Part shown: piece by piece, positions 12,161 to 59,735 of the stretch
Layout of the letters: every line of letters begins with the position of its first letter
Numbering within the stretch: the first letter of the stretch is position 1
DNA from: a virus
Virus record (IMG/VR): IMGVR_UViG_3300044970_001982
Coordinates: 45,101-109,100 of that record
Strand: one strand, 5' to 3'
DNA: 64,000 bases
Notes under the pieces: generated by a model
The model's database searches: none
What the model was told of the DNA's origin: nothing
The model's input: the letters and a program-made list of their open reading frames with translations, nothing else
Position numbers and translations under genes: made by a program

Positions 12161-12176
12161 CAATTAACCTTAATTT

Positions 12177-26000: not shown

Positions 26001-28267
26001 TTTTTAGTGGATAATGGATAAGTTGATTCTAACGAAAGAGAAGATATGTCATTAATATCTTTTATTAATGGTGTAAGACTTGTACGATCAATTCCAAAAT
26101 TTTCTAGAATTCTATCCCAAAGACCAGAACTAGTTTCGTTTAATATTTTTTCTTGCTCACTTCTAAAAGAAGTGCTGTCTGGTAGGAATATTTTTGTTTG
26201 TGTCTCTGCTGGAACAAACAAAGTTAGATTGCTTCCATCTTTCCATTGAGTAACTATATTTGTAGACAGTACATCATTATCGTAAGTGTTAACATATTCT
26301 AAGTTTTCTGCCAAGATGCCATCTTCATCAGTTGTATCTACTGGCATTGCGCCGTATGGACTAACCTCATACGTATCCGCTTGATTTGTAGCTTTATCAT
26401 CTGATGTCTTTAATAAAAACGCCTCACTAACATATCTATGCATTTCTCCTGCGGCTTTGCCCATATATTGACGATATTTACCCCAGTGAATAGCCTGATT
26501 AAAATCTTTAATCATTGGCAAGAATGGCTTGTGATTATAACTGTATAATTCTAAGTCAACTACTAATGCAAATGGATAACTTGGTATTGTTGATATAGAC
26601 ATAGCGGATAGTGCAACAGCTGTAATTCCGTGCACAGAGTTTATATACTGATTCTTGATTGGTAGAATTGGAGAATACTTAAACGCTGCAATTAATCCTC
26701 TGAGTGAGGATAAGAACTTATCTATTTTATCTTCTGAGTCTCCACCATTTTTGAAATCTATAGTAAAGTTTTCATTTAAATCTAAGCTAGAAGCGTCGTC
26801 TATTGAGAGACCCCATATTTCTTCATAGTTAGGGAAAAATAATCTTAACGATACCGTGGTTTCTTTGTATCCAGCATTAAACTTTGGAGTGTTTCTTTGA
26901 CGTATTGCACCACCTGTAAGGGATCCAGTTTTAAATGCAGAATTAACACTAACAGAAACTGGTGGAACATAAAAGTTTGCAGCTCCTAGTCTTAAATGAA
27001 AGATATCTGGTTTTCTAGGTGGTATATTTGCCCTGAATGGAAAATCTTGTAAAGCTTTTTTAATTCTTTCTGAAGTTGTATAAAACTTTTCTGTGCCAGC
27101 TAAAGTAAATATTGGCTTACCAGATTGACTAACGCCAAATGCTTTTTCTAGCGAAAGAATAGCGTCTGCCATATTATTAAGAGTATCCTCTTGGCCTCCA
27201 CCCTTTCCGTTATTTGAATAGTCGCCAACAACAGCTATAGCATCAAAAACAAACGTCAGCAATGATGGGAAATAGTGGTTTATTATAGAGAATGAAATAG
27301 GATCTTGCTGAAGACTATAAACAACTTGACTTAGTTGTTGTAACCATGGAGTATCTACCGATGGATCTATAAAATCATTTGCAGATTTTTTAACTGTTGC
27401 TATATTTTGCAATCTTTTCTTAGCGAACTCTCCTATTTCATAGGCATAGGATGCCAGGTAGATTAAACCCGTAGATTCTAACCTGGAATATATACTTCTA
27501 GCTAAAGTTTCTTCTTCTGAAGTATTTAAAAGATTTTTAATATCTATGCCAAAAACCCTCGAAGTTGCTCTTACATTTTTTTCTGTAATTTCATCTTTTC
27601 TTGTCTTTTGGAAAAATTCTTCCATTGGGTCTACTTGAGTTCCGTCGTTGGCGCCAAAATATATTAAACTAAAGAACCTCTGAACTTGGTAAATTGCTTC
27701 ATCTTCTTCATAATTTTTTTCGTCTTCTACTGTTTCTTCGGAAACCAATCTTTCTTCAAATGCAAGAAGCTGCTCTAGCATTTCATCATTAATGCCAACA
27801 TCTATAGATGTTTCATACCATATTGTTATTCTTTCCAATATTTTAGATGCTAAAAATTTAGTTACCTTTTCATCCGCATCCGTATATGCATAGTTTGTTA
27901 CAAAGTGATTTATTATATCTGCTTCAGTAGAAAGACCTGGATTTTGCAAAACCCCAAATCTAGCGCTTATAACACTAAGATATTCATCTAATACTAAAGA
28001 CGTATTTATTGCTGTTCCAGATATAAAAATCGATACAGATTTTTTGTATAAGGCTAAAGAATATTTATCATTAAAGTCTAAATTAATTAACTGTGAACCG
28101 GTTATATCTGGAGTAGATAAATCTACGTTATCGCCAAACTGAAGGAACGCAGATAGGCTAGATGTAGAAACGGACTGATCTGATAGATAGGCACTTAGGG
28201 TAGTATAGTCTAAGTCGCTTTCAGCTATATATGTAAGAGCTTGTCGTGCTATTGAATTTATTGCCAT
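17030..28267 (-). CDS. Giant baseplate hub protein with an RlpA-like barrel, hydrophobic helices and a C-terminal thermonuclease (SNase) domain
   Basis: 3745 aa. Hub-like GELIIIGNADIRPHDLVYL...FEVEQVVHHF; SNase-like VTEFIDGDTF...VRFDGINTGE...RVLG...LNWELVSNNLAQVY; RlpA-like YIAMKW...RKVLV...VSPDAAWYLG. Confidence 0.7.
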   Translation of the reverse strand: MAINSIARQALTYIAESDLDYTTLSAYLSDQSVSTSSLSAFLQFGDNVDLSTPDITGSQLINLDFNDKYSLALYKKSVSIFISGTAINTSLVLDEYLSVISARFGVLQNPGLSTEADIINHFVTNYAYTDADEKVTKFLASKILERITIWYETSIDVGINDEMLEQLLAFEERLVSEETVEDEKNYEEDEAIYQVQRFFSLIYFGANDGTQVDPMEEFFQKTRKDEITEKNVRATSRVFGIDIKNLLNTSEEETLARSIYSRLESTGLIYLASYAYEIGEFAKKRLQNIATVKKSANDFIDPSVDTPWLQQLSQVVYSLQQDPISFSIINHYFPSLLTFVFDAIAVVGDYSNNGKGGGQEDTLNNMADAILSLEKAFGVSQSGKPIFTLAGTEKFYTTSERIKKALQDFPFRANIPPRKPDIFHLRLGAANFYVPPVSVSVNSAFKTGSLTGGAIRQRNTPKFNAGYKETTVSLRLFFPNYEEIWGLSIDDASSLDLNENFTIDFKNGGDSEDKIDKFLSSLRGLIAAFKYSPILPIKNQYINSVHGITAVALSAMSISTIPSYPFALVVDLELYSYNHKPFLPMIKDFNQAIHWGKYRQYMGKAAGEMHRYVSEAFLLKTSDDKATNQADTYEVSPYGAMPVDTTDEDGILAENLEYVNTYDNDVLSTNIVTQWKDGSNLTLFVPAETQTKIFLPDSTSFRSEQEKILNETSSGLWDRILENFGIDRTSLTPLIKDINDISSLSLESTYPLSTKKFVRQAIDIMTAGTSTDDFREKVYAYKVQSFISENITRIDSEQASWLRNYPGENAIPSLHFNQYPTIGSESYYRNNEIVKNPEGDNASLNYIKYSIYNESSASGSIVDELVNQEVLRQQKSTGITEVDQDKIRQQITDAFQVNLYERFFKDGFVKNLMEAVRLREGDYHFNEWEVPMTRVDLNPKEAIVNGVSVTMGNNLAKLQVQMQDEPTYQFIGGKDTYINISLTVFGEKELIKIKNIFDHANGLARLEHSTGVIGFLGIKNIISALAGVKYVLPLNYRVDTIPNYPHVYSVQLSFVDFDIFQQKREKISSDQQTKLIEHFGTKRNPFLRIKQMWGSFNAYPDLPLSIKDKDGGVVGNLDPDFYFRSFSMFDSDIINNTKIQLDLTEKFEFDNSDDWALGTSDNLERKIQSVRNTILDFITRYSYTNANNQDAREQRALTNEQLINEMIDYVQSTGISVHNFVSIFQDVVSANTEGQSSVRKQALLTDFIFLSASSSEDLQIFEDINGAPYLVGNVGVTNTSTEDLIKYILANSHLENETQVSFDPDEVEFHKVITIIPGMDPEEQNPNEIPAFMQTALGTHFGYINKENGRFYLTIDGSNVTIENDENSSNGTKIKLQSNFVEDTQTPDRGCTNSLTGVAGVSSLNQYQQAYSGDFNGHMEKMLNDIQYRDISGRMLRAFPTYMLWLIDEGGMFAGVKLFDNFYGLQSIVDFSVVSSEDLLGDTLILRMSNMYSKLTTRPSTEIFNANNDEFSNDPLNLTDGISAILDRTLNVARNIISGMRNNYVVDINNIRLKPGVRVHLRCGYGANPNSLQTVFNGVITNVEQGEIVTITAQSDAIELGAVVNSTNKKGDTGKIDGGVDTGMYLSEPRDLMVRLLSMGASRFKEAYARATNGTVFSENRFGIRHFGTMLYEPLNDIERARADGIRQTVAGVYNNLSELNIGGAANSAAFRISNVFSRDPVSGLFGNGSLMTSMGQLVSNYCSDVDLELFKRNIYPGNGTGFAQFLGGDLDDGWSTASSFSQDSTDSLRLAGQRYIESATDRSWNRLIVEAELGSTASTQTIENLVEDNKLVSAEGRAGLVAGVLKGAATIGLAALNPVAGAVAGAGLFGLLRGRGGNNLFRTMGIISPNADDDLQGFDEVSFRAQTYMRTVWDLFQTCARLLPNYIVAVRPFEDRSTIFYGKPHWLYTSGVVPVTTGFPSDEKAAQLNLPGYPKIVQPNNDIENIINQVSSQTNSLADYEAFKRSTELSDVISDLVQDQVNSRGIYAPTASVNGRLINFNSNLASSYSERNENGVYNVVCKLPVNVGKVRMGFHLPVGDPTKTFADRGNDNAQGHAQIDNLPIRFRYPFYTVNENVILNKYSTEIRDGGLLEGTYIDLRADTQGFPVSLKVGSVEIATDDLIDRYVEDGDTVKTGVSGGLEFTKGILALMQEEINFIKENSITIIPSSEITYELDRPLGLASLTDQLNLGEQSLFGEINIVRMPLPSVSIFASGGENDIGALTVTTIDAAENADDYSFEYELNEQISYQEWGSPKGLLEEQFYIAMKWPYKPGSSDKLIQGESLEKFKEQYGFVNLYGTAEDYKNRKVLVFSPLTQRAVVCAPAYFMWGEDSDEDVAAVVSPDAAWYLGSLVSSLVDKVPDELKNNLPNWASIGSTESEDVSINFKHSGGDSRNPLYTLEESSGIAIQPRLVDCFFAFVPDDVPVGVVSSELAPVKRFLVGDDKAVNEEYIIGFGNYTATNGETLTAQRKQLTGSADSLERQLAESSGIFAEWSASNASISDIDYTYGGNVLKSGDDLGYFEAILDITKISNDTDVLSRSTLYDRLDGELYTTGDDDTGSGRVGFAPVYSMMDSVSVEARSFYDENFDPNVSVIAGNGRTLSQANDIWDQFRFGYHTYESVKNIFAKTYGLDPDDTTEFPEEFKRILDKTNSKIFSNFSDNTVDVPGLENVGNIENTGVDELVILLGADFFTDSNRQGTQQGTSQLEARKQTIEFIRTNYIDATSQGISGDAGVIEYFNNVISKSLDNIRVNFFENQIINNLLQYSIENTDNQSEAIKLSDQIKTPKQLFLLMVGLFRQKLWSTAYGRAWLVLKPDRKKGPFGNGKGSEGSWSFKPVDKVFEAFISPYSQYAKGSEKFLQLLVSTASEGSNSSTWIGGIGEDVSDFYQRNIGPIFTAIGDGLSGLLGMFKLNMMQMGYAISEVGNFGKQAHILNKVLNDSIYYSLGRPGTLLRAVDNPFTREYGEPVLEVRQPFQRLHYVSSFSHIISNQIQENLNNVATVVTAVSDGKHPVTVALDKGAPPERQTEITVETGIYYDNMIGSGFLGVLHPLMHPLETFRGVAKNAQGTPDELSARRIALAHLKESIKDIYGGELIIIGNADIRPHDLVYLSDVYERMYGLFEVEQVVHHFTPEMGYITSITPNALVTVNDPSRWFLSSWLRSWLGLQNIRNDTRFYIDNIMASNTGINVGGDISVDALSDALMPQMMGGIEYTHGSTSLVKDIMANQTALTLPQKAQQLIDANKSGSDTGFKAVAGGLIAGSGLIAAAAGGAAAAIALPIVGQLAWKGWKWIRDNVLDQHGCYIQYLNKNGQPMDAGLSYNQGMVVGRYHSKALLPGLLGARTKVKTPEGNVFIRSDDLLKSLGWQEVEIKDLVRHIDYENAITHARVLQLSGLGPEKADLQPSLFRVIVKVTEFIDGDTFWVQDIISGSTFKVRFDGINTGETNTIRVGGIPNEPGNQDNQTQLTSISTPGGRAKLYTEEKLKNRIFVLRTKISNSATDDVIFEQQFQPGANENTVANYAKDVTASERVLGTIWYYQPESVVQQAEQFVTSCFIKNKEKNIGSVDSINNLICLEFFKGIYEDSPMNVKKLSIYNEIINSKLSYFAPEYLRDNAQTNYGISEDDVVKLYNALVAYRILNATYEKTSEWPTIFWDEYYEDGYPVTLNWELVSNNLAQVYAKQVQIESESVISAEESALMPRRVI

Positions 28268-28730: not shown

Positions 28731-31700
28731 CTAAAAAGATCCGGCAATTTCCTGGTACGGATTTGAAGCTACATCAGGGATTCTATTATACATAGTACTG
28801 TTAATATTTCCATTAGTAAGTCCTGAAGCAGCTTGTCTAAAACTTTCTACCTGATCTCTATTTCCATAGAGGGAAACTTTATAATTCATACCTGGATTAT
28901 AGCTTTTTCCTGACATTGCAGCAATTTCTGATAACTTTCTAGGATAGTCTGATTCATATGCAGATCCTCCAGGTAGTAGTGGTGGACCACTTATATCCTC
29001 AGCAGTTCTATCCTTAGACCCTTGATATATAAAACTTGCAGCTACGGCAAGTCCTGTTCCAATAGCAATATTTCTAACAGTGGGCTTAGCTAACTGTTCC
29101 GATAAGTATTCTTTAGTAATCCTTTGGAATCTTGCCTTTTTTGTCGGAGATCTTTCATCTGAAAGAGCTCGAAGAGTATCTGCAACTACGTCTGGTGTAT
29201 CATCAGCGATTTGATCAGCCGACCTTAATACATTCCCTGATGCATTTGATCCATTAACAAAGGCAGCTGCTTTAGAGTCATTTATTTGAGCTTGCTCATA
29301 AACAACCCTTGCCCTAATCGCACTACTAATTTGAACCTCTTGTGCGGTTGCCTCTGCAGCTTCTTTATCTAATAGTAAGCTCTTAATGACATCAGCCCTG
29401 CCATACTGTTCTCCATTTGAGGAGAAAAATCCATCTACAAAATCAAAATCCATAGAGGTATTTAATATGCCGGCTCTTTGTTCTGGGCTAAAAGTTAATG
29501 ATTCAATAAAATCTTTTAATGCAACATTTGAAGTTGCTCGTTGATAATTTCTTCTTTTTTGCGCCATATCTAAGTATCTATGTAGAGTATGTGCCCTTTC
29601 AACACCATCTCCAATCAAAGTTGTGTCTGGTAGTTTTTCTAATAAACCAAGTGGATATTTTCTTTGAGAAGAAACATATTCCAAAGAGCTAATTAATTCA
29701 TAGCCACTTATGCCCATGGTCCTACTTACATCTTCCATGTCTGCAAGAAGTCTGTCACCAAGTTGGAACTTTAAATTTTCCATACGATACTTGGCCATTT
29801 CTTCTAAGTTTGCATCACCTTGTTGATCCATTATTTCTTTTATAGAGGAAATAATTTGACTATTGCGATCTAAGATATTTTCTGCAGCTATTCTAGACTC
29901 TCTAGTAATATCTGCTGCTAATAGTTGTTCTTGTGATGCGCTTCTTGTCGAATATAGCTTAAATAGTGCGCTACTGTATCTTTCTGATATGTTTGCTGCT
30001 GCTTCCATTTCTGATAGTTTTCCAACACCTATAAATCCTCTTGATCTTAGTAGCTTCTCAACTTCTTCGTGACCACCAGCAACTGCGTCATTAAACTGCT
30101 TAATATCTTCAGCGTTTGCACCGCCTTCAACCATTCCTTGAGAAATTCCTTCAGCGATTATTGTTAGATCTGATTTACTCAATTTTCCACTGGATAATAG
30201 AACTTCATCAATCTTTGCATCAAAGCCTTGATATTGAGATAGAAAGCCAAATAACTTTCCGTACTGGCGCATTGTTGTTTCTCCAAATTGTCCTAAATTA
30301 AGAGCTTGTTGTCCATATATTCTTTCTAAAGCTGTTTTTGCTATACTTGGATCAGATGCAGCGAGTTCAGAAGTATGCTTTAATATTAAACGTCCAGAGG
30401 TAAACGTTTGAGTCATGTCAATTGCGGTTTCAGCTGGAAGCAAGCCAAGCATTATGTTTTTTTGTTTTAATATTTCCTCTATATTTGCAGGCAGTTTATT
30501 TCCTTTAAACATTTGCTCAAATTCATATAAACCTTGACCAATAACAGTAGACCTATTGACATATACGCCAAGTATATTTTCATTTTCTATTGCAGTTTGA
30601 ACACTTCTCTTTAAGAAATCTTCAGACACTACTTGATTAAGTATCTTGTAGTCTATAGAGCTTACTGCCTTATAGAGTGCTTCGGAATCGCCTGCTTTTG
30701 CAAGATCTTTCATTGACTGTATTTGAGTCGCAGACAAATGTGGAGATAGCTTATTAAATAACTCATCAGCAACTTGCATGGTCTCCACTTCTGCCTTTAA
30801 TCTTTGGAAACCTAATGACATAAGCATTGGGTCTTCAGCACCACGTGCAATTAATTGTGTTGCTGAAAGATTTTCTGATGCCGTTCTTCCAAGTCTTTGA
30901 AGAAAAGCGGCGTCAAATTTTCTTCCTTTATTTTGATATAGTTGATCCCAGACTCTTATAGCAGTTTGTTCTATATTATTCATATCAAACATATCATCTA
31001 TAAAATCTTTACCAGTTAATGCTGTTTTTAAAGTAGATAAATCTGAATCACTACTAGCAACTAACATTTCATCTAATTGACGCATAAATAGTTTATTATT
31101 GCCAAATAATTCCTGATAAGTTTCAAGGTCACTAAATCTAGTTAAGCCTATTAATTCTCCAGCTGCTGTTGGTTGACGAGCCATCGCAGCTGCAAATCTT
31201 CTTTTACCACCTGATTCAAAGGTGCCTAAAATTGGCAAACCCTTGTCGTCAAGGTCGAATCCACCTAGGGCATGGTAAAATCTTCTGATGTCATTTTCAT
31301 GGAATAAAATATTATGATTAGATATTCTAAACTTGGCCATCTCAACATTTGTTCCACCAATGTCAAATGCTTCAGCGGTTCCAGAAAGAATGTTCATATT
31401 ACCCTTAACTCCGGTCATAGCATTAGCTTCTGAGTTAATTGCATATCTATAAACTTCTGGAAGAACTGGAAGTTTCATTCCCTTTCTGCTTACAAATAAT
31501 TCTGAATCATAATATACTTTTAATAAGTTTAAATACTCATTTGAATCTCTAATTGAAACTCCACTTTGATGAAGTTCAAGAACTCTTTTTGCCCAGTCTC
31601 TGTTTAACATCTTACTAAATTGTTGCTCTTCAGGTAAGGCATCTATATCCTGTGAGGAAATTTTTCTAATTGCCTTCATGACATTATGGTCTTCATTAAT

Positions 31701-33380
31701 TCTTCCTCTTGCTAAAAGAGCTTCAAATTCATCAAGAACTCCTTTTCTATATTTTTCTATCATAGCAAGTTCTTCTGGTTCGCCAAAAATAGATTGATGA
31801 AAAGCTGTTAACATTGGATCAGAGTAGACTCTACTTGTAGATTCTGCTGCACCGCTGAAGTTTAGAATTGCAGTACCTGCTGCAATTGATGTATCTCTTT
31901 TCAATCCAGCTACACTTGTTATAATTCCATACTTATCAAAACGATCTAGAAAATCAACAACTTGTGCGGCTGATTTATAGTTAACGTCTCTATTGCCTAT
32001 TCTTACAGAACCACGAACAGTCATTTGAGACATCTGTTCGTTTAACTGAGTTAATTGTCTGTCTATTTCTATTCTTCTAGTTATTGAATCTTCATCAAAT
32101 TTTGTAGCTAAACTACTTTTTTCTTTTCTTAATTGAGCTTTAAGATTATTAATATTTTTTCTATTAATTAAAGAAGAACCGTCATATCCCTTTTCAATTT
32201 CATCAAATAAATTACCAATAATACCTTTTTCTGATGAACTAAATGATTTAGACTCTTTTAATTTCTTCTTTGCTATATCTATTCCATATTCACCGGTTGC
32301 AGCATCTATTTGACCAGAATTTGCTATTTCATTTATAAAAGTTTTTAACCTATTCTGAACATCATCTATGTCCAATAAAGCTTTTCCTTCTGCAGCAAGT
32401 TTGCTATTTTCAACATCTATTAATTCTGATAAAGGTGATTTAATTACAGAAAGAGCATCAGCTTGAGATCTATTTGTTCTTATATATGACATTACGTCGG
32501 CCTGTTTTCCAACAGAAGATAACAATCTAGTATCGTTTTCTTCAAAAGCGTAAGCCATTATTTCGAATACATTATCAACATTTAAAGTAGCGTTTGCTAG
32601 AGCAGTCATTCTACTAACAGAATTTGCTGCGCCAGTTGGGTCTAGGAAATTAAATCCTAAAAATGAATCAATTAAAGATCCAGAAAGAGATACATCTCTA
32701 GGAGACAAAACACCCTTGAGTCGTTTTGGCAATTTTGCAAACAATTTGCTTAGACCTTTGTCACCTTGTGATATAGCCCTAAGTAATTCTTCTTCTTCAA
32801 AAAGCCCTCTTCCAGTATCTTGTAAAACTTCTATCGCTTCAGATGTGCTAAGAACTTTATCTCCCAATATAAAATTAAGAGCCATTCCACCTTCATCTGT
32901 AGGGAAAACGAAACCAGTTCCATTGTCGGTCATGCTTTTTAGGAAGTCACCTATAGATTTACTTCCTTGTCTAGCTTTGTGAATTGCTATCTGAGCACTT
33001 AGTGTTTTGCCTTTATATCTATTATTAGTTTTTAGCGCGCTATTCATTTCTGCGAGAACTTGCTCATAACCCCTAAATGTAGATGGGCTTAGTTCGTCTG
33101 CAAAGTTTATATTTGCTAACTCTGTTATTCCAAAACCAGAAACATACGTTGCAGCTTCGTCTACTGTAGAAAATACTTGTTGTGCCGATATTCCTGGAAT
33201 ACCAGATAGTTTTGGATTAAAATAACTTGCCTTAAATTTTAATCTTCCGTCTTCAACAACTGGTTCTATTAATCTTTTTTGTCCAAAATATGTTTTAGAT
33301 AGCGATTGTTTTGCGATCAACATTTGCCTGTCTATTGACAGGTTATTCAAATAAGATGTAACATCTATTATCGGTTCCAC
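28731..33380 (-). CDS. Putative single-subunit two-barrel RNA polymerase (QDE-1/YonO-like), probably virion-associated
   Basis: Ordered motifs: YDG (D400), R456, K469, K494, LGGFDLDD (706-712), RQPTAAGE (R735), LGVYVN (937-942), AID (D988); C-terminal hydrophobic helix. Confidence 0.65.
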   Translation of the reverse strand: MEPIIDVTSYLNNLSIDRQMLIAKQSLSKTYFGQKRLIEPVVEDGRLKFKASYFNPKLSGIPGISAQQVFSTVDEAATYVSGFGITELANINFADELSPSTFRGYEQVLAEMNSALKTNNRYKGKTLSAQIAIHKARQGSKSIGDFLKSMTDNGTGFVFPTDEGGMALNFILGDKVLSTSEAIEVLQDTGRGLFEEEELLRAISQGDKGLSKLFAKLPKRLKGVLSPRDVSLSGSLIDSFLGFNFLDPTGAANSVSRMTALANATLNVDNVFEIMAYAFEENDTRLLSSVGKQADVMSYIRTNRSQADALSVIKSPLSELIDVENSKLAAEGKALLDIDDVQNRLKTFINEIANSGQIDAATGEYGIDIAKKKLKESKSFSSSEKGIIGNLFDEIEKGYDGSSLINRKNINNLKAQLRKEKSSLATKFDEDSITRRIEIDRQLTQLNEQMSQMTVRGSVRIGNRDVNYKSAAQVVDFLDRFDKYGIITSVAGLKRDTSIAAGTAILNFSGAAESTSRVYSDPMLTAFHQSIFGEPEELAMIEKYRKGVLDEFEALLARGRINEDHNVMKAIRKISSQDIDALPEEQQFSKMLNRDWAKRVLELHQSGVSIRDSNEYLNLLKVYYDSELFVSRKGMKLPVLPEVYRYAINSEANAMTGVKGNMNILSGTAEAFDIGGTNVEMAKFRISNHNILFHENDIRRFYHALGGFDLDDKGLPILGTFESGGKRRFAAAMARQPTAAGELIGLTRFSDLETYQELFGNNKLFMRQLDEMLVASSDSDLSTLKTALTGKDFIDDMFDMNNIEQTAIRVWDQLYQNKGRKFDAAFLQRLGRTASENLSATQLIARGAEDPMLMSLGFQRLKAEVETMQVADELFNKLSPHLSATQIQSMKDLAKAGDSEALYKAVSSIDYKILNQVVSEDFLKRSVQTAIENENILGVYVNRSTVIGQGLYEFEQMFKGNKLPANIEEILKQKNIMLGLLPAETAIDMTQTFTSGRLILKHTSELAASDPSIAKTALERIYGQQALNLGQFGETTMRQYGKLFGFLSQYQGFDAKIDEVLLSSGKLSKSDLTIIAEGISQGMVEGGANAEDIKQFNDAVAGGHEEVEKLLRSRGFIGVGKLSEMEAAANISERYSSALFKLYSTRSASQEQLLAADITRESRIAAENILDRNSQIISSIKEIMDQQGDANLEEMAKYRMENLKFQLGDRLLADMEDVSRTMGISGYELISSLEYVSSQRKYPLGLLEKLPDTTLIGDGVERAHTLHRYLDMAQKRRNYQRATSNVALKDFIESLTFSPEQRAGILNTSMDFDFVDGFFSSNGEQYGRADVIKSLLLDKEAAEATAQEVQISSAIRARVVYEQAQINDSKAAAFVNGSNASGNVLRSADQIADDTPDVVADTLRALSDERSPTKKARFQRITKEYLSEQLAKPTVRNIAIGTGLAVAASFIYQGSKDRTAEDISGPPLLPGGSAYESDYPRKLSEIAAMSGKSYNPGMNYKVSLYGNRDQVESFRQAASGLTNGNINSTMYNRIPDVASNPYQEIAGSF

Positions 33381-36300
33381 TATCTAACACCTGCGCTTAT
33401 ATCAATTTGCTGAGAACCAAAAGGATTCATTACTGGAGTAACTGTTCCTGTTACGCCCATCCCATTCATTAGCGACCTTAACTGATAGGCTATGTCAGCC
33501 CCAGAATTGGATTGTCCAAATTTTGGATAACTTGGGTTTGTAAGATTTGCTTCTTGTATCTGTTGTGGATAGTAACCCATTTGCGACATTTGTAGACCCA
33601 TTGATTGACCCATCTTAATTTTTACTTGATCCATATTGGTATTTGGGTGCCAACCCTCCCAATGTTCAGCAGGTAGTTCGTGTCTGCTAAAGTAATCCAC
33701 TAAGTCTGGTCTACGTTCTACATTCATTCCCCAAGCAGCCTGATATATTCTTCTTTCTAGTCTCCCGGCTGTAGAAAGTATTTGTTGACGTTCTTCAACC
33801 GGAGCATTTATCATCGCTTTAAAGTGTTCTCTTTTTCTTTTTGGAATAGCTAAAGATAAACTTTCTATATCAGTTCCATATTTACCGGAATTAATATCTT
33901 CTATAGGAGCTCCATACATTGTTCTTTTTGCTGCAGATCTAAATTGGAAAGCTGCGCCTCTGTCGCCAGAAGCCTCTGCCATATTTGCCAACCTAGTATT
34001 CTTTACATATGTTAATATGTCTGCATACTCTTCTAGTGCTAGTTCCTTTTTTCTAGTTTCTGGAATAAATTTTTCTCCAGTTATTGCTTCTTTAGCTTGA
34101 TTAAAAGAAGAAACAACTAAACCTGTAATTGCTCCTACTGCAGATGAGATTAACTTTCCTTTTGCAGTTTTGCCAAAAAATGTTCCCGTAACTGCTAAAG
34201 CAGAGGCTGCTGCTAATGGATTTCTATTTGCAGCTTTGTTGATCATTGGTTCTATGAAGCTTTCTACTGGCCTTTGCCATTCTGGGAAAGTTGCCCCATA
34301 AACATTGTTTCTTTCCCAATCCTCAACAGCAGTAGTTTTGTTTAAAAATTTTCTATTTATAAAAGTATCTCTGTGAGCTATATATTCGGCTGCTCTTCCA
34401 AGCGCATATGGCAGTGGATGAGACCCTGCCTCTTGGGCTGATTGATATCTATATTTATAATCTGTAAATTGACGTTTCTGCTGTGCTGCCAATGTTCTTT
34501 CCCTAAGATCTTGAACATATATACGATCAGCAGGGTCATTAACCATCGTGTCAATTTTTTTATCTAAAGCTCTATACTGCCTAGAGTAAGGAGCAACATC
34601 TCCTAATATTTTATATTGATCCAATAGCCCGTATCTACCAGTTTCATCAGACCTAAGTCTATTTAATCTTTCGTACGCAACTCCGGGTAGTCTTAGTTCG
34701 CCTTCTTGAACTTTGGCAAATGGGTCACCGGTCGTAAAGTCTGTAAAATACTCAGGTCCTGGCAAGAATGGATATTGTTGTCCCATAAGATTTCTTATTG
34801 GATTAATGTAATTAACGTCTGTTCTTTCTTTCGGTATGAATCTTCTTGTTACTTCAGAAAATTCTAAAGACCCTACTTGAGAACCAGACATAAGTGGGAT
34901 ATCTCCCAATCCACCAAGATTAAGATCCCAAAATTGACGACTTGTACCATAAGCTTTAGATGCTGCCTGCAAAACAGATCTTTGTGGAGCAAAATCTGAT
35001 TGTCCATATCCAAAATTTTCACGCAAAGTACCTATTCCGAAACCATAAATACCTAGCATTTCTTGAGTTCTATAGCCTAGCTCCTGTGACTGAACCTGAA
35101 CATTTCCAACACTTAGAGGAGCTCCTGCTGGTATTATTCTTTGTGGCATTACGCCAGATACCTTGCTTGGACCATAGGCCATCTGCAAATATTGGTTATT
35201 AATACTTGATATTGTATTTCTTGTATCTGCTTGAGCCGTATTTAAGGCCCCAGCTCGTCCTGCTAACATTGCATTTGTAGATGCTTGCATTCCGCCAGCT
35301 CCACTAGATGATACTCCTCCGACTGGGATTGGCATTCCTGATCCAAGTGGTCCTCCTGGAACTGATCCCTGAGTCATTCCACCAGATATATAGGCTGCTG
35401 CATTATATGCTCCGGACTGGCCAGCTGGAGCATAATTAGCTAATCCGGCTGCTAACTCTCTTTCGTGCATTAGGGTTTCTGGTTTTAGAATTCTTCCAAC
35501 TGTTGCATTTAGGGCCGGGACTAGAGGTCCAAATGGACCACTAAAGTATTCTCCAGTTACAGGGTATGGTCTATCGACAAAGTGTTTTCTTTCAAATCTA
35601 TAAGGATCAAATGGTCTAAGTGGAGATATGTCAGTATAAAATAAAGCTTTTTCTATTGGGCTTCCATATGTATCTGAGGTAAACATTGCCCCAGCTTCTA
35701 TCTTTCTATAGATGCTCGGACGATAATACATAATCTTTCCGCCCATAAATGGCGTATTACCCAATGGCCAGAAACGTCCTTGGCGAATAGCTACTTCACC
35801 TTCAAATAATTGTTCTTTTTTCTCTTGAAAATTCATTCCACCAGGAGTTATTCCAGCCCCAAGTGCATGTAGATTTCCGGCTACTTTAGCTGCACCACCG
35901 ATAAAGAATGGAGAGTATACTCTTTCTCCCCTTTCATCTTTTTCATTAACCATTCCGCCAATAGTTCTATCTACTGTCATTATTCCTGTTCCGGCGGCGT
36001 ATATTGGAAGAACTCTTTTTCCAACCATGCCAGAAGCAAATAGACTTAATGGAGATGAGTATTTATTTACATCAAGCTGCAGTCCAAGTGTACCAAAATA
36101 TTTATTTAATCTTTCCACTCCATGAGAGATAGCTGCTGATGCACTTGAATAACCTTGGGTATTATTAAATGTGTTTATGCCTAGAACACTCTTTATTGCT
36201 GCAAAAGGGTCTCTACCAAAAACAGTGCCAAACGTAGGCGTTAATAACACGTCTGCGCCGGGTCCTCTTGTAGAGCCTAAGGCATCTGAAGCAAAGTCTG

Positions 36301-39300
36301 ACATTGAATATGGCGCTGTGCTGAGCTTTGGATATAAGAATTGCTTGAATAAGCCAGACTTTCCAATTTCACCTATTCTAGCTGTCGTTCCTTTGACGTA
36401 TGGATCCAAAAGTTTTTCGACACCAGATACACCCTTTTCTGCGTTACCTCTTATTATAGAAGCTGCTTCTCTTACAGAGCCTCTTTGTACTGCCAGGTTA
36501 CTAAGGTTGCTTCTATTGGCCCTGAATGAACTTAGGTTTAGCAAGGTAGAAAAGGCCGCAGCTTGTGCTTCCGCTAATTGACCAGCTGGTAATTGTCCGG
36601 CCATTTCTGATATTGCCTGGTTAATCTGTATAAATGCATTTCCATAAGATCTACCAGTTGCACCTGCCGCCCCTTGTGCAAGTAGTTCATCTCTTTGTAT
36701 TAAGTATCTAAATATCTCATTTTTTAACTGATCTTCTCTAGTTAAAATAGTCGGGCTTTTTGCTCTAATATGCGAACCAGACATCAAGTCTGCTTCTTCT
36801 AGCATCTTTCTGATTCTACTACCCATCATGTAGAAGGTGTCGGTATCAAAGCCTCTACTTCTTAATTGTGCTGCGTCGTCTGTAGATCTAGCCAGAATTC
36901 TTTGAGCAAACGCTATGGTATCTTGAACATTATTTAATTCTGAAGTTCTTTGACCATAAAATGTGCCTACTCCACGATCCTCTATTGACTTCATTACTTT
37001 TCTCGGCATTGCTGTGCCAAAAGTGGACTTTCTAAATCTTTCAAAAGCCCTTAAAAATTCTCCCTCAGAAATCATTTCTGCGCCAGAATCATCAACTATT
37101 CTTACAGCGCTACTTGCTTCAGCTCCAACATCTAATTTGTAGTTTTTTCCTTTTACGTTTACTGTTTCGCCTTTTAGTATTCTTGCAAAAAAAGCTGGAT
37201 TGTCTACATCTGTTTTTCTTTGGGCAAATCTTTTTAATAGACCTGGTAGTGAATTTGGTTGCTCAAAGTCAATGTCAAATTTTTCTCTAAACTGTAATTC
37301 TTTTTGTGGAGAAACTCTTAGAGCCTTAAATAACTTAGATCTATTTATGGGGTTTCCATTTTCGTCTAATTTAAGAGCGTTTAATTGATTTAGAGATTTC
37401 ACATCTCTTTCTGAGGCTGCATTTCTAGCTTGCCTTGAGAGCATTTCTGAACTAGTTCTTGATAAAGGTCTATAGAATCCTTCTAATTGCCTGGATTGAT
37501 ATTGTCCAGTCATAGCCTCTCTATTAAAGGCCATAACCTGTCCCTTAGTTCTTCCTCCACTAAAGAATAAGTAGAAATCAGCTGCTTGATCAGTTTCACT
37601 TAAAAATGGTTGAGCCACTTTTCCTTGAACAATTTGAAATGGTGCTCGACCAGCCATTTCATCAAAAGAACCTTTGCCCAACATTTGCGCTGGGTTAAAG
37701 TTAAGAATAGGAATTTTCAAATCTCTTGCAAAGAAATTTCCTACATTACTTATGGATTGTCTTATTCCAGAAAAGTCTAATACATTTCCGGACCTAGTAA
37801 CATAGGTGTCTCTTAATACTGAAACGCTAGCAGAAGTTGTTGTTGGATCTTGAAGTGCTACTCTTTTTCCAATATCTCTAATTATATTTTGACTATCGTC
37901 TGTTAAATTGGAGAATATTCCTTTTTCAAATCCCTCGTCTAATGTCATTGGCCTAAGGCCAAGGATGTTATACCCTCCAGCAAATATGCCTGAGCTTATT
38001 TGTTTTTCTCTAACTAGAAATGACCTCATCTGAAGTAAGTTGGAGGTATCTATTCCTAGACCGGCTAATCGATTTGATAAAACTGCCTCTGAAACGTCTC
38101 TACCATCAGAATGTTTTAGCTGAACACCCATTCTTTGAGCTGATCTTTTTATTAAGAAGTCTCTTTTAGCGCTGGTTAAATTATTTAAATCGCTAAAATC
38201 TTCAAAAGATGCTTTTTTAGTTTTTAGTATCTTTGATGCAACTGCGGGAAAACCCTGATCTGACACAGCTGACCAAGCTTTTTCGGCCCTTCTTCTCAAT
38301 TGGGCTTGAAATTCTCTACCTTCAAAAACTCTGGTAGCGTCATCAATGGATGATCTTAGGGCATCAGTAGTTAAGAATCCTCCTGGAATATTTGTGTTTG
38401 CAGTACCAGAGAATCTTGTTAATATTTCTTCAAAAGCTTCATCGCCTTCTTTCAATATTTTTGTTTTGCCAATAGTAATTTTTCTACTGACTTCAGTTAC
38501 GCCTCTTTCAACGTGAATCTGATTAACAAAATTATTGGTTAGCTTTTCAAAAGCTTCATCATTTGTTCTTCCTGCATTTTTTAATATTGCTCTTTGCAAT
38601 ACTTCTTTGTAGGCAGATTGTTCTTGCCCTCTAAAAAATTCAGAAGTATAAAAAGATCCAGATCCTACTCCACCACCACCAGTGGACTCTATCTTTTGTG
38701 CCAATCTGGACATTCTATTTCCATATCCAGATTGAATTCTTTTGATAACTGAAGTTAAATCACTAGCGTCTGATATTATTCCCCTGGATGCACCAGAACG
38801 AACCATGGTATCAAATTCAACAGATCTGTTAATTACATCGTAGCCTGCACCGACTTTTCTAAATTCATTTATACCCTGACGAACAGAAGATCCTAGACCC
38901 CTTAGTCCGGGAAGTAGATCTATATATCCAAAGCTCCCATCTGCTCCATCACCAAATGCTAATCTTCTACCAAATGTAGCTGCTCTTTTTAAGGTGTTTT
39001 GTCCTGATGAGGCGGCCCATGCCTCTCTAGCTCTAGTATTTCTTGCTGCTGATAATATAGCAGGTAAGTTTGGCCTGTCTGCGTAGTATTGCTTAGTAGC
39101 TGCCTGTATGCCACCAGAGGTTTGTGCAGATATTTTTAAAGCTTGATTAGCTATCTTACTAAGATCGTGTCCAACTTCAGATAAAACATCGCTTAAATCT
39201 ACAAACTTTTGTGCTGCTCGTGTCTTAAATGTATTTACACCCATTGACCTGGTAACATCACCCATTGACTGCCTGAAGGTCATTATAGAGTGACGAGCAT

Positions 39301-40042
39301 TACCAGCAGCTGCGCCGGCTGCCTCAAATGGCAGCATCATTGTTACTAGGGCGGTGCTTGATTCTTTAACAAAGTCTGTAACTACGTCTACTGGATTATA
39401 CCAATTAACCTTAGCCTTATCTTCACGACCACCAAATATTGGGTCTACTAATGCTTTTTGTCCGACATAAAGTGCTGGCAATTCATAGGGAAGCCTTCTG
39501 GCAGATTTGACCATTCTAGCTTGAAATGAATCTCTTGCAGACCATATGGCAGCTGGTTCATATTCTGTACCTTTACCTGCCTGAGCTAATTCATTTTTTG
39601 TAAAATACTGATTGTTTTTTATTGTTCCAGTTGTTAATTTTCCGCCACGCTCAAAAACAAGTTGACTATACGGATCCAACTGATTTGGATCAACGCCATC
39701 AATACTTCTTGATACACCTTCTAGTGCATCTAACTCTCTTCGGAATTCAGTTAAGCTACGAAGAGCTCTTGAAGAAAGTCCATCAGGTTTTACTGATGCC
39801 TGGTCTTGTAAAGTCTTTGCAAGTCTTAAACCACCCTGTTTGGTGACTTTACTGAGCACAAACATGCTACCCATTGTGGCAGCAGCGGTTCCCAGGAATC
39901 TCAGGACTGGGTGGTTATTTAAAGCTCTACTGACAAATGTAGAATTGGGAGCGTCTCCACGCTCTTCATCCTGAGTATTAGGAATATCCCTTGAGGTTAC
40001 ACTGTAGCCTAAATTTTTAATTGGGCCAGGATCTCTTATCAA
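33380..40042 (-). CDS. Tape-measure-like / ejected internal virion protein
   Basis: 2220 aa, A/G/R-rich and helical with several hydrophobic segments; directly downstream of the tail chaperones; TTG start. Confidence 0.6.
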   Translation of the reverse strand: MIRDPGPIKNLGYSVTSRDIPNTQDEERGDAPNSTFVSRALNNHPVLRFLGTAAATMGSMFVLSKVTKQGGLRLAKTLQDQASVKPDGLSSRALRSLTEFRRELDALEGVSRSIDGVDPNQLDPYSQLVFERGGKLTTGTIKNNQYFTKNELAQAGKGTEYEPAAIWSARDSFQARMVKSARRLPYELPALYVGQKALVDPIFGGREDKAKVNWYNPVDVVTDFVKESSTALVTMMLPFEAAGAAAGNARHSIMTFRQSMGDVTRSMGVNTFKTRAAQKFVDLSDVLSEVGHDLSKIANQALKISAQTSGGIQAATKQYYADRPNLPAILSAARNTRAREAWAASSGQNTLKRAATFGRRLAFGDGADGSFGYIDLLPGLRGLGSSVRQGINEFRKVGAGYDVINRSVEFDTMVRSGASRGIISDASDLTSVIKRIQSGYGNRMSRLAQKIESTGGGGVGSGSFYTSEFFRGQEQSAYKEVLQRAILKNAGRTNDEAFEKLTNNFVNQIHVERGVTEVSRKITIGKTKILKEGDEAFEEILTRFSGTANTNIPGGFLTTDALRSSIDDATRVFEGREFQAQLRRRAEKAWSAVSDQGFPAVASKILKTKKASFEDFSDLNNLTSAKRDFLIKRSAQRMGVQLKHSDGRDVSEAVLSNRLAGLGIDTSNLLQMRSFLVREKQISSGIFAGGYNILGLRPMTLDEGFEKGIFSNLTDDSQNIIRDIGKRVALQDPTTTSASVSVLRDTYVTRSGNVLDFSGIRQSISNVGNFFARDLKIPILNFNPAQMLGKGSFDEMAGRAPFQIVQGKVAQPFLSETDQAADFYLFFSGGRTKGQVMAFNREAMTGQYQSRQLEGFYRPLSRTSSEMLSRQARNAASERDVKSLNQLNALKLDENGNPINRSKLFKALRVSPQKELQFREKFDIDFEQPNSLPGLLKRFAQRKTDVDNPAFFARILKGETVNVKGKNYKLDVGAEASSAVRIVDDSGAEMISEGEFLRAFERFRKSTFGTAMPRKVMKSIEDRGVGTFYGQRTSELNNVQDTIAFAQRILARSTDDAAQLRSRGFDTDTFYMMGSRIRKMLEEADLMSGSHIRAKSPTILTREDQLKNEIFRYLIQRDELLAQGAAGATGRSYGNAFIQINQAISEMAGQLPAGQLAEAQAAAFSTLLNLSSFRANRSNLSNLAVQRGSVREAASIIRGNAEKGVSGVEKLLDPYVKGTTARIGEIGKSGLFKQFLYPKLSTAPYSMSDFASDALGSTRGPGADVLLTPTFGTVFGRDPFAAIKSVLGINTFNNTQGYSSASAAISHGVERLNKYFGTLGLQLDVNKYSSPLSLFASGMVGKRVLPIYAAGTGIMTVDRTIGGMVNEKDERGERVYSPFFIGGAAKVAGNLHALGAGITPGGMNFQEKKEQLFEGEVAIRQGRFWPLGNTPFMGGKIMYYRPSIYRKIEAGAMFTSDTYGSPIEKALFYTDISPLRPFDPYRFERKHFVDRPYPVTGEYFSGPFGPLVPALNATVGRILKPETLMHERELAAGLANYAPAGQSGAYNAAAYISGGMTQGSVPGGPLGSGMPIPVGGVSSSGAGGMQASTNAMLAGRAGALNTAQADTRNTISSINNQYLQMAYGPSKVSGVMPQRIIPAGAPLSVGNVQVQSQELGYRTQEMLGIYGFGIGTLRENFGYGQSDFAPQRSVLQAASKAYGTSRQFWDLNLGGLGDIPLMSGSQVGSLEFSEVTRRFIPKERTDVNYINPIRNLMGQQYPFLPGPEYFTDFTTGDPFAKVQEGELRLPGVAYERLNRLRSDETGRYGLLDQYKILGDVAPYSRQYRALDKKIDTMVNDPADRIYVQDLRERTLAAQQKRQFTDYKYRYQSAQEAGSHPLPYALGRAAEYIAHRDTFINRKFLNKTTAVEDWERNNVYGATFPEWQRPVESFIEPMINKAANRNPLAAASALAVTGTFFGKTAKGKLISSAVGAITGLVVSSFNQAKEAITGEKFIPETRKKELALEEYADILTYVKNTRLANMAEASGDRGAAFQFRSAAKRTMYGAPIEDINSGKYGTDIESLSLAIPKRKREHFKAMINAPVEERQQILSTAGRLERRIYQAAWGMNVERRPDLVDYFSRHELPAEHWEGWHPNTNMDQVKIKMGQSMGLQMSQMGYYPQQIQEANLTNPSYPKFGQSNSGADIAYQLRSLMNGMGVTGTVTPVMNPFGSQQIDISAGVR

Positions 40043-45061: not shown

Positions 45062-45071
45062 TTTATAGTAA
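45062..45071 (-). promoter_or_regulatory. Putative late promoter box TTACTATAAA (sheath)
   Basis: Intergenic, about 45 nt upstream of the sheath ATG; the motif recurs before other structural genes. Confidence 0.6.
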
Positions 45072-45131
45072 CACCTAAGTTATAAAAACAACTACATACT
45101 TAAATTGACTATCTTCAGAATATATAGGCTT

Positions 45132-48958: not shown

Positions 48959-49336
48959 TTAAGCAGTTGGTATTATAGTAACGTCTACAGTGCCAGCTGA
49001 ATTTTCACTTAAAATAATTGTCTCTGCTTGAGATATAGCAAACGCGTCATCTTCCAAGACATTGAATACAATAAAACCCTCTTGATTATTTAATGTACTA
49101 AAACTCATTGATGAAGTTGAATTAGTGATATCAACTAATCCAGTAGAGGAAACTATATTGTGAGTACTTACAAATACAAGTGTAGAATTAATACTTTCTG
49201 GAGATATTAATAATACACCTAATATTTTAGGATTATTAAGTACAGCTGTTGGGCCGAATGATTCTGGAGCTACTACCCTTATTCCATTATATTGGAAATA
49301 AGGTTCATTATAATTAATTTCTCCATTATAAATCAT
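48959..49336 (-). CDS. Hypothetical virion protein
   Basis: 125 aa; YN repeats at the N-terminus; in operon. Confidence 0.65.
   Translation of the reverse strand: MIYNGEINYNEPYFQYNGIRVVAPESFGPTAVLNNPKILGVLLISPESINSTLVFVSTHNIVSSTGLVDITNSTSSMSFSTLNNQEGFIVFNVLEDDAFAISQAETIILSENSAGTVDVTIIPTA
48973..48981 (-). promoter_or_regulatory. Putative late promoter box TTACTATAA (neck genes)
   Basis: Inside the 3' end of the upstream ORF, 29 nt before ATG 48944. Confidence 0.45.
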
Positions 49337-52058: not shown

Positions 52059-52469
52059 CTATAGTGTAAATATTTTATTAATTGCATTACTCCAGTTTAT
52101 AGTAATTGATATTGCTGAAGAACTAGATGAAACTGGTAAACCATCTGCTGTATCTATATAAGCTATTAATCTGGATGTAGATGCTACTCCAGTGTCTTTA
52201 AATAAAACTACATAATTAAAACCACTTGTGCCATAATCTTCTATGGTAATATTATCCGCGTCGAAAATACCGTTTGCGGTAGTTTTATCTACTAATGCGC
52301 TGCTAGTTGCAGCTATATTACTAGATCCTATGTCAGATAAAAATTGATGCGCTTCCAAATCAACAGTGTAACTATTTTTTACTAAACATACTTTTAATGT
52401 ATCATCAGTTAAGTCTAATAAGCCTTCTAAAAAGGCTTCCTTAGCTTTTTTGTATAGTGAATTAGCCAT
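52059..52469 (-). CDS. Small virion structural protein
   Basis: 136 aa; DLTDDTLKVCLV...FDADNI...LIAYID...ITINW pattern common in phage structural modules. Confidence 0.6.
   Translation of the reverse strand: MANSLYKKAKEAFLEGLLDLTDDTLKVCLVKNSYTVDLEAHQFLSDIGSSNIAATSSALVDKTTANGIFDADNITIEDYGTSGFNYVVLFKDTGVASTSRLIAYIDTADGLPVSSSSSAISITINWSNAINKIFTL
52096..52105 (-). promoter_or_regulatory. Putative late promoter box TTACTATAAA
   Basis: Inside the 3' end of the 136-aa ORF, 46 nt before ATG 52050. Confidence 0.4.
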
Positions 52470-53242
52470 TAAATACCTACTTCAGCGGAAACTATTACTC
52501 TGTATTTATATCCTGTTTCAAAGTATTCTTTATCTTCGGTGTAATAAACAGGTGTTGCATCTGTTGATGGAAAGTCAACGTAAACATCTGGTTTCCAAGA
52601 GTGTAGCGAGATTTGCGCATTAACACTTTCCCATCTAGATGGCGTCTTTTGGATTTTTTTCCTCTGAGCCTTAAAGTATTTAGATGTTAGAAAGTTTGAT
52701 GCCGGACGTGAACTGAATGTTATTGTCACTCTACCATTGTTTTCATCATTGTTAAGATAAAAATCTCCACTAGTAGGATTTGTTGACTCTATATAGAAAT
52801 TTGGATTTTTAGCTAATATTTGATATCCAGTTTCTATATCTACCCTAACAGACTTATCTTCAATTAAGACTTCATTAATAACCGTACCCTGAGTTTCTTG
52901 AAGAATTGAGGGTGTGGCAGAACTTGTCTGGCTAGTGAATGTTATTCTTTCTTCTGGAACAGTTAAACCTGATGAGTCTAATAAGTTATTTATCTTTAAA
53001 ACATAATCTGTATTTGAACTTAATACAGTGTTCCAATAAAGAGTTAATGTTCTGCTTATTTGATTATAATCAGTTAGTGTATTTATTGTTCTAAAAGGAG
53101 AAGACACCGAAACTGGAGTAGCTGTATCTGTTTGTACAGTAAAGTTAGCATTAACTAATGATGCTATTTTTATGGTTCTACCAAACTTAATGTTTACTGT
53201 ATTGATAGTTACAGTTGCATTATCAATTAAATATAGCGCCAC
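52469..53242 (-). CDS. Ig-like domain virion (head decoration) protein
   Basis: Two beta-sandwich-like halves (VNIKFGR...LSSNTDYVLKI; VTITFSSRP...YKYRVIV); GTG start with GGAG RBS. Confidence 0.6.
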   Translation of the reverse strand: MALYLIDNATVTINTVNIKFGRTIKIASLVNANFTVQTDTATPVSVSSPFRTINTLTDYNQISRTLTLYWNTVLSSNTDYVLKINNLLDSSGLTVPEERITFTSQTSSATPSILQETQGTVINEVLIEDKSVRVDIETGYQILAKNPNFYIESTNPTSGDFYLNNDENNGRVTITFSSRPASNFLTSKYFKAQRKKIQKTPSRWESVNAQISLHSWKPDVYVDFPSTDATPVYYTEDKEYFETGYKYRVIVSAEVGI

Positions 53243-53271
53243 TCAACACACTCCATAATCAAAACTATAAA

Positions 53272-53280
53272 TAATAGTAA
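53272..53280 (-). promoter_or_regulatory. Putative late promoter box TTACTATTA
   Basis: Intergenic, just past the capsid terminator and 30 nt before GTG 53242. Confidence 0.55.
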
Positions 53281-53294
53281 CAAATTACTCAGAT

Positions 53295-53334
53295 AAAAGC
53301 ATAGGGGACGGCAGATTTCTCATACCGTCCCCTA
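53295..53334 (-). terminator. Rho-independent terminator after the major capsid gene
   Basis: Perfect 10-bp inverted repeat TAGGGGACGG (53302-53311) / CCGTCCCCTA (53325-53334), followed on the minus strand by TGCTTTT. Confidence 0.8.
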
Positions 53335-53376
53335 GCTTTAGGGCTTATTCGTAACTATAACAACCCTAAGGTTTTA

Positions 53377-54435
53377 TCAGGCTGTTTCGTTGGTAACCAT
53401 TACCTCGTAGTTACGGCTGAGTCTTACATTCTTAGCGACTGTAATACCCTCACCGTCACCCAACATAACGATGTCGTAACGCTCTTTCATCTTGAGTGAG
53501 CGGAGGTCACGGCTAGGATCATCGAACTGATCTGTGCTCATGTCATCCTTAACGAGGAGAGTACCTACCTCGTTACGATCAATCAAGAAGAGGTCTGACT
53601 TGGCTGGTGTAGCGCCACTCTTAGCGGTGAAGCTAACGAATGGTGAAACCAGTACATTTAGACCCATGGGAGCGGTTGCGTTTAATGCACCCTCTGCCGA
53701 CTGAGGACGATAACCCCAGCTAGTTCCAACAGCTGAAGCTGCACCACCAGCGTGGAAGATCGAATCCTTAAGGAAGACCGACCACATGAGGGGGTGAAGA
53801 ATGAAATCTGTTGGAATATGATTTTCAGCCATTAGAACGGCAGCCATGTCAATGATGTCATCCCAGGTGATTGTCTTGTTGGCTGCGCCATCAATGTCCA
53901 AACCTGTTGTGTCATCATATGAACCACTGTCGTTGTCGAAAACGATAGTAGCTGCATCCTTGAAGCGGCTAAGAGCAATTTGCTCCTTTAGGCGAGCCAT
54001 GGCACGGCCTGCTGCACGAACGTGCAGACCGACAATGTCCCAAAGTGAGTCAGCGATAACTTCCTCAGTGAAAGCTAACTTTACACCCTTCTTTGAAACT
54101 TTGCCTTCTACCTGCTTTGCGAAGGCGAGTGCTTGCTCTGGATATTCTTGTCCTTCTGGAATCTCTGCTGCTTGGATTGCGTTGACTGCTGGGAACTCCA
54201 AAGAACGCCCCTTACCGAGGCGAACAGTGGAAAGCAGAGGAGTCACGAGAAGTTGTGGCTCAGCTGCTTCTTTTAGCGTACGAGAGAGCACCTTGGGGAA
54301 AAGGGCAGCTGCGTCTGGCGAAGCAAATGCCTCCTTAATGGTTACTCTATTGTCTGCATCAATGTACCCGTCCTCAGTCAGTGCCGCCTCCCAAGCTGGG
54401 AGACCCGAGAGGAGCTCTTGGATTGTCTTACTCAT
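53377..54435 (-). CDS. Major capsid protein (HK97 fold)
   Basis: 352 aa; AAEIPEGQEYPE, KKGVKLAFTEEVIADSLWD, ILHPLMW, KMKERYD; GGAGG RBS; distinct codon bias; follows protease and decoration genes. Confidence 0.92.
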   Translation of the reverse strand: MSKTIQELLSGLPAWEAALTEDGYIDADNRVTIKEAFASPDAAALFPKVLSRTLKEAAEPQLLVTPLLSTVRLGKGRSLEFPAVNAIQAAEIPEGQEYPEQALAFAKQVEGKVSKKGVKLAFTEEVIADSLWDIVGLHVRAAGRAMARLKEQIALSRFKDAATIVFDNDSGSYDDTTGLDIDGAANKTITWDDIIDMAAVLMAENHIPTDFILHPLMWSVFLKDSIFHAGGAASAVGTSWGYRPQSAEGALNATAPMGLNVLVSPFVSFTAKSGATPAKSDLFLIDRNEVGTLLVKDDMSTDQFDDPSRDLRSLKMKERYDIVMLGDGEGITVAKNVRLSRNYEVMVTNETA

Positions 54436-54474
54436 CTTAGGATTATTCCTCCTGTGTTATTGTTTTTGTTATTA

Positions 54475-59702: not shown

Positions 59703-59712
59703 TTAATAGTAG
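59703..59712 (-). promoter_or_regulatory. Putative late promoter box CTACTATTAA (portal)
   Basis: Intergenic, 25 nt before the portal ATG. Confidence 0.5.
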
Positions 59713-59735
59713 CTTAATATATGGCTTTTCGTAAT

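Follow-up and report, generated by a model that had tools for sequence, protein, structure and literature searches.

A conserved hairpin behind the capsid gene of freshwater phages with conserved blocks complementary to helix 69 of 23S ribosomal RNA

Several known systems provide a frame for the element described here. The viral termination-reinitiation signals (TURBS) of caliciviruses and of influenza B segment 7 are short motifs next to the stop codon of a major structural gene that are complementary to a conserved rRNA hairpin and are thought to hold ribosomal subunits after termination; they lie upstream of the stop, pair with h26 of the small-subunit 18S rRNA and serve an overlapping downstream start codon (PMC6393290, PMC3035654, PMC11921876). 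Shine-Dalgarno and other mRNA-16S rRNA complementarity operates from the 5' leader and recruits 30S subunits (for example PMC3310771). Ribosome-associated ncRNAs (rancRNAs), defined by their physical association with ribosomes, are small RNA pieces, some cut from mRNAs, that tune translation, and the examples known to us come from yeast, archaea and bacteria. Loop-loop ('kissing') antisense RNAs such as CopA/CopT and RNA I/RNA II are encoded on opposite strands of one locus and control plasmid replication. On the side of the large subunit, helix 69 (H69) of 23S rRNA is the central bridge between the ribosomal subunits and the handle used by release and recycling factors and by several antibiotics; a synthetic antisense PNA against it is reported to block translation (Kulik et al. 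2017, as cited in PMC12828698), and the same stretch at the DNA level is a homing-endonuclease site of the I-CeuI type (rDNA homing sites in PMC2602781). A natural bacterial or phage mRNA element that pairs with 23S rRNA has not, to our knowledge, been described, and our literature searches found neither a natural anti-H69 RNA nor a described motif behind phage capsid genes.

The locus analysed here lies in a stretch of 64,000 nucleotides (hereafter the window), which is the right-hand 64 kb of a 109-kb IMG/VR contig (IMGVR_UViG_3300044970_001982, positions 45,101 to 109,100) that is judged about half complete, has a G+C content of 35.5% and therefore represents an uncultured jumbo phage. DNA runs holding the stretch are mostly labelled lake or freshwater metagenomes. 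Every ORF of 200 aa or more in the window, other than one overlapping the capsid gene itself, lies on the minus strand, and a run of very large ORFs (3745, 2220, 1823, 1549 and 1522 aa, at 17030-28267, 33380-40042, 2124-7595, 28731-33380 and 7595-12163, minus strand) lies downstream of the head and tail genes. The features relevant to the element are as follows.

53377..54435 (minus strand): major capsid (head) protein gene, 352 aa, ending in tandem stops, UGA at 53377-53379 and UAA at 53374-53376.
53365..53371 (minus strand): block 1 (CCUUAGG on the mRNA), the 5' arm of the hairpin, complementary to 23S 1924-1930.
53362..53364 (minus strand): variable spacer (GUU here), the three positions that mismatch the rRNA.
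53351..53361 (minus strand): block 2 (GUUAUAGUUAC on the mRNA), in the hairpin loop, complementary to 23S 1910-1920, that is, the 9-nt H69 loop plus its closing pair.
53338..53369 (minus strand): hairpin 1, an 8-bp stem (53362-53369 with 53338-53345) and a 16-nt loop (53346-53361).
53292..53337 (minus strand): intrinsic terminator directly abutting hairpin 1, a GC-rich stem of about 13 bp with one bulge, followed by a U-run.
53272..53281 (minus strand): late-promoter-like box (YTACTATWA type) ahead of the next gene (52469-53242), marking the end of the capsid transcription unit.

The capsid assignment rests on a match to phrog_3922 at E 1.7e-25 and, by tblastn, on 38-42% identity to the annotated major head proteins of 0305phi8-36-like Bacillus phages, among them KLEB27-3 and 0305phi8-36 itself, whose head protein was confirmed by mass spectrometry. 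A preliminary description had proposed, from sequence alone, that the 3' untranslated region of this capsid mRNA is complementary to 23S rRNA helix 69/70, and this observation is correct. The rrlH gene of E. coli K-12 carries the corresponding 23-mer at 23S positions 1909-1931, the plus strand of the window at 53350-53372 agrees with it at 20 of 23 positions, and on the mRNA the order is UGA, UAA, one A and then the complement from 53372 downward, that is, 4 nt after the UGA. The three mismatches give G.U pairs, such that a duplex prediction draws 23 contiguous pairs at -31.6 kcal/mol, and the calculated duplex of the naked RNAs is about 16 kcal/mol more stable than the two separate folds. Hairpin 1 and the terminator behind it both appear in the minimum-energy fold (-39 kcal/mol, z -5.3); a simple terminator scan missed the latter because its loop exceeds 8 nt. 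This is the only ungapped hit of at least 20/23 between the window and E. coli 16S, 23S and 5S rRNA on either strand. However, 8 of 60 dinucleotide shuffles of the window also give at least one such hit, so the match alone is not significant (p about 0.13), as the preliminary description had cautioned. What exceeds chance is that the match coincides exactly with a strongly conserved non-coding element.

A capsid-protein search of IMG/VR found about 560 relatives, from which the 80 best (92-98% amino-acid identity) and 80 more centred on an 86%-identical capsid were taken without regard to the motif. Of 142 such loci with enough downstream sequence, 136 carry the element. A lack of conservation in close relatives and common matches of equal quality in shuffled controls had both been named beforehand as conditions that would overturn the proposal; the first does not apply and the second, at 13% of shuffles, is borderline. 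In the 136 loci the major-allele frequency is 0.94-1.0 at all 7 positions of block 1, while in block 2 7 of 11 positions are invariant and the rest are at 0.89 or above, giving 12 invariant positions of 18. By contrast, third-codon positions in the adjacent 53 codons average 0.72, with only 3 of 53 invariant, and the stretch between stop codon and element, the rest of the loop and the terminator stems differ widely among the same loci. The terminator stems have turned over through compensatory changes, with 5 of 10 predicted pairs showing double changes. The three rRNA mismatches fall in the only variable segment, the spacer opposite 23S 1921-1923, for which 26 different sequences of 1-9 nt occur among 90 unique elements. 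A reading in which the element has no function, and looks conserved only because the relatives are close (86-98% capsid identity), can draw on the shuffle result, but it is contradicted by this contrast with neighbouring sites and by the recurrence in a second capsid family described below, and we regard it as very improbable. Five or six close relatives (about 4%) have lost the element, and one relative (L056, 4056-4121) has a degenerate partial copy of block 2 inserted between the stop codon and the real element. Cultured relatives at about 40% capsid identity (0305phi8-36, KLEB27-3, WH1 and MTATph1) have only a plain terminator, and no cultured phage with the motif was found.

The conserved blocks belong to a structured RNA on the capsid-sense strand. 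Block 1 plus the spacer pairs with a 3' arm located after block 2, which places block 2 in the loop. The partners of the invariant U and G residues of block 1 alternate between A/G and C/U, indicating a sequence constraint on the 5' arm beyond the need to pair, and the spacer positions show full compensatory changes (G-C, A-U and C-G at one position; U-A, C-G and A-U at the next). Swapping 3' arms among the unique elements lowers the mean number of arm pairs from 7.4 to 6.0 +/- 0.24 and raises the mean energy from -8.7 to -7.5 +/- 0.19 kcal/mol, and none of 20 permutations reached the native values. These pair counts rest on per-sequence minimum-energy folds, because MAFFT alignments did not align the 3' arm, and such folds lean towards pairing; the arm-swap control is the safeguard. 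The sense RNA folds better than its reverse complement in 63 of 90 unique elements, against 21 where it folds worse (Wilcoxon p 2.5e-7), as expected if G.U pairs matter. The structure therefore belongs to the capsid mRNA and not to a plus-strand transcript. The alternative raised in the preliminary description, that a plus-strand transcript displays the exact H69 loop and acts as a decoy, for which H69-binding factors such as RluD, RlmH or RRF would be the targets, has no support: although the plus strand does carry the exact 9-nt loop, the long ORFs lie on the minus strand, no plus-strand promoter is predicted at this place, G.U pairs become C.A mismatches on the plus strand, and the stem flanking the loop is not H69-like. 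We consider this reading highly unlikely. No Rfam family overlaps the element at E up to 10 in 52900-53800, and nothing reaches gathering score in the whole window.

A pattern scan for the two blocks found at least 119 loci, almost all of them 4-31 nt after the stop of the same capsid family. One group, however, has upstream a 347-356-aa gene of another head-protein family (phrog_1623), which has no significant similarity to the window's capsid except a short C-terminal AKNV(R/K)L patch (window 53395-53410 and L128, a locus of the second family; the last ~10 codons of both genes). In an unbiased set of 80 relatives of this second capsid, 16 carry the element 0-7 nt after the stop, in several sub-lineages with different flanks and with both A and G variants of block 2, whereas the others have unrelated AT-rich spacers. 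The element is thus a module tied to the 3' end of capsid genes that has been gained or lost repeatedly and is dispensable, and the shared patch hints that gene end and element may have moved together by recombination. In L128 and its relatives (L288-L367), the ATG of the gene after the capsid terminator lies only 6-10 nt after a TGnTAnAAT-type -10 element, which suggests leaderless or near-leaderless late messages in that phage group.

Other contexts of the motif are no more than chance would give, since a reversed control pattern of equal length gave 52 hits against 72 for the real pattern, of which about 40 are capsid-linked. These contexts comprise a complete 134-kb phage with terminal repeats (L122, 3130-3205, and its group), in which the two blocks, separated by a 1-nt spacer, sit in a 31-nt loop closed by a 12-bp stem about 45 nt upstream of a small lipoprotein-like ORF, and G-variant matches inside or beside tRNA gene arrays of large phages (L403, L381 and the L413/L378 group), which would be intriguing for a translation-related element. 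Many chance hits of the G-variant pattern (L382, L390, L411, L414, L416, L422, L423 and L427) come from one conserved coding motif read on the other strand (Val-Thr-Thr-Thr-Pro-Lys-Arg), possibly in a terminase-like gene, and represent a trap for motif scans. Block 2 occurs once in the window, and its other copies in four related genomes lie in coding sequence and lack block 1. The exact rRNA complement occurs only once in the viral collection, so rRNA contamination is not an issue.

Several roles that would not require the ribosome were examined. A DNA-level signal is conceivable, as block 2 contains TATAGT preceded by a G at position -14 (GnTATAGT, a -10-like element that could drive a short RNA ending at the terminator), TTAGG followed by TATAG resembles SP6-type promoters (SP6/K11-like), and the plus strand of block 2 matches the YTACTATWA box at 8 of 9 positions and could be an antisense copy of it. 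Boxes of this GTTACTATWA type recur in intergenic spacers ahead of structural genes (53272-53281, 45063-45072, 48973-48982 and 59704-59713, minus strand; the first is an exact box, and near-matches lie in other intergenic spacers), are conserved behind the capsid terminator in relatives, and are probably the phage's late promoter. However, at least 10 unique variants (10 of 90 unique elements) have G in place of the essential -11 A, the TG extension is not conserved, a consensus scan calls no promoter at the element, the distance between the blocks varies, and there is one copy of the element per genome. No T7-like polymerase (PF00940) was found in five phage records, three of them at least 92% complete, although the control genomes were also silent. 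In addition, the 3' arm covaries with G.U pairs that are valid only in the sense RNA, so the upstream block is transcribed and folded, and the second capsid family uses other promoters. A promoter reading is therefore unlikely. A terminator/antiterminator switch (attenuator or riboswitch) fails because the terminator stays intact in the minimum-energy fold when the 23-nt motif is forced single-stranded. A pseudoknot between the loop and the Arg-Asn-Tyr codons about 45 nt upstream (an 8-nt complement) was rejected because those codons vary synonymously in many loci without any change in the loop. A 14-nt perfect complement of the element, spacer included, lies outside the window inside a 644-aa ORF (about 35447-35460 of contig G000:C1; L206, 2448-2461), but it is absent from two 92%-complete relatives and is therefore chance. 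Finally, about 25 nt around the ribosome-binding site in the capsid 5' leader (54436-54462, minus strand) are nearly invariant in the first family and include, just before the AUG, UCCUAAG, which could pair with part of the AGGAGG site and is also complementary to block 1; one clade has CCUACG without compensation and the second family lacks it, so this pairing is not a general explanation.

Contigs from four lake metatranscriptome runs cover the capsid gene, but none covers 53168-53309, and because contigs can neither prove transcription nor define transcript ends we draw no conclusion from this. One record ends at 53337, exactly at the foot of hairpin 1, next to adapter sequence, which is only a weak hint of a defined 3' end there.

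Taken together, the comparisons establish a selected RNA hairpin, placed 0-31 nt after the capsid stop codon and directly before the intrinsic terminator, whose 5' arm and loop are held constant while the spacer and 3' arm change and compensate. Its binding to the ribosome and any effect of that binding are inferred from sequence alone. Our preferred, though tentative, interpretation is that the element works by base pairing in trans with the large-subunit rRNA, the displayed loop making a loop-loop contact with H69 on free or immature 50S subunits not engaged in 70S ribosomes. In this view, a ribosome stopping at the capsid stop codon would melt the stem and also free block 1, which matches the strand leading from H69 into H70, just as the 50S subunit is released. 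The consequence is speculative: the element could tether or titrate 50S subunits at the end of the most abundant late message, or act as an antisense against nascent 23S rRNA. The proposal of the preliminary description, a ribosome-interacting element or a decoy, is thus supported only in part. The conserved positions are exactly the rRNA-complementary ones, which fits a ribosome-interacting element, but the continuous 23-bp duplex is not conserved, since only the two blocks are under selection; the decoy finds no support; and block 1 is normally buried in the stem, so that only the loop block is displayed.

Several lines of evidence lean towards a functional relation to the rRNA. By our calculation, two fixed blocks of 6 and 11 nt with any spacer of 0-8 nt would match somewhere in a 4.6-kb rrn operon, on both strands, with a probability of about 5e-6, and, given a random 20/23 hit lying on the element, the chance that all three mismatches avoid the 18 conserved positions is 10 in 1771. 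Some lineages extend the match to 22 of 23 positions (loci L068 and L136) and the second family reaches 11+11, while two of the three recurrent changes in block 2 are A-to-G and keep a wobble with the rRNA uridines. The reported effect of antisense PNA indicates that H69 can be reached by a complementary strand, but also that binding may inhibit. Against this, the finding was picked for its rRNA match in a scan of about 250,000 windows, in which a few coincidences at the 1e-5 to 1e-6 level are expected somewhere. The third recurrent variant, U to C at position 2 of block 2, creates a C.A mismatch. The target of block 1 lies in the H70 stem of mature 50S, where 1927-1930 are paired, H69 carries pseudouridines and m3-pseudouridine 1915, which should weaken the centre of the duplex, and H69 is engaged in bridge B2a in 70S ribosomes; nor is a benefit of binding 50S subunits evident. 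The rRNA variant that would pair with the G variant of block 2 occurs in only 2 of about 185,000 species genomes, H69 being so nearly invariant that covariation with the host has no power as a test.

Nearly as likely is that the hairpin is a recognition site for a protein or another factor, such as a phage or host RNA-binding protein or a nuclease that sets the stability, 3'-end processing or translation of the capsid mRNA, and that the rRNA complementarity is a coincidence noticed after the fact. A hairpin with a constant loop and one constant arm is typical of protein-binding RNA sites, its position next to the terminator fits a role in stability or processing, the record ending at 53337 is compatible with this as a weak hint, and variation in spacer length is tolerated by a hairpin but not by a duplex. 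This reading, however, requires the coincidences calculated above, both in the match itself and in the placement of all mismatches within the spacer; no candidate protein is known, and the two phage groups share no obvious common factor other than the host machinery.

The most far-reaching possibility, which we consider less likely than not on present evidence though it is not excluded, is that phages place at the end of their most abundant late message a hairpin that base-pairs with host H69, either to capture 50S subunits released at the capsid stop codon for local re-use or to silence free or nascent 50S subunits late in infection. This would be the first natural mRNA element (or 3'-UTR-derived small RNA) addressed to the large ribosomal subunit in bacteria, would show that phages manipulate the large subunit through RNA, and would provide a naturally evolved anti-H69 sequence. 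Even if the complementarity is coincidental, the element is a new, widespread and sharply defined RNA motif, occurring in more than 250 contigs and two capsid families and tied to capsid gene expression in uncultured freshwater jumbo phages.

In comparison with described systems, the element shares with TURBS a position next to the stop codon of a major structural gene and complementarity to a conserved rRNA hairpin, but it lies downstream of the stop and matches large-subunit 23S rRNA, and the next gene is 135 nt away, behind a terminator and its own promoter-like box. With Shine-Dalgarno-type elements it would share function through Watson-Crick pairing between an mRNA and a universally conserved rRNA segment, though it lies in the 3' untranslated region and matches 23S rather than 16S rRNA. 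A processed 3'-UTR fragment carrying the hairpin would fit the rancRNAs, among whose described examples we know of none from a phage. The synthetic PNA targets the same rRNA segment by complementarity but is artificial, strand-invading and meant to inhibit, whereas a natural RNA hairpin would bind more weakly. The I-CeuI-type site, which the preliminary description had pointed to, is the same stretch at the DNA level, yet only 20 of 23 positions agree, the spacer is variable, no endonuclease or intron lies nearby and selection acts on an RNA fold. As in the kissing antisense RNAs, a hairpin loop is fully complementary to the loop of a target hairpin, but here the target would be a ribosomal RNA helix. 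None of these systems addresses 23S rRNA from a phage 3' untranslated region, and the hairpin, if it does bind H69, would be a bacterial counterpart to the rRNA-complementary elements of eukaryotic viruses and a distinct kind of element in its own right.
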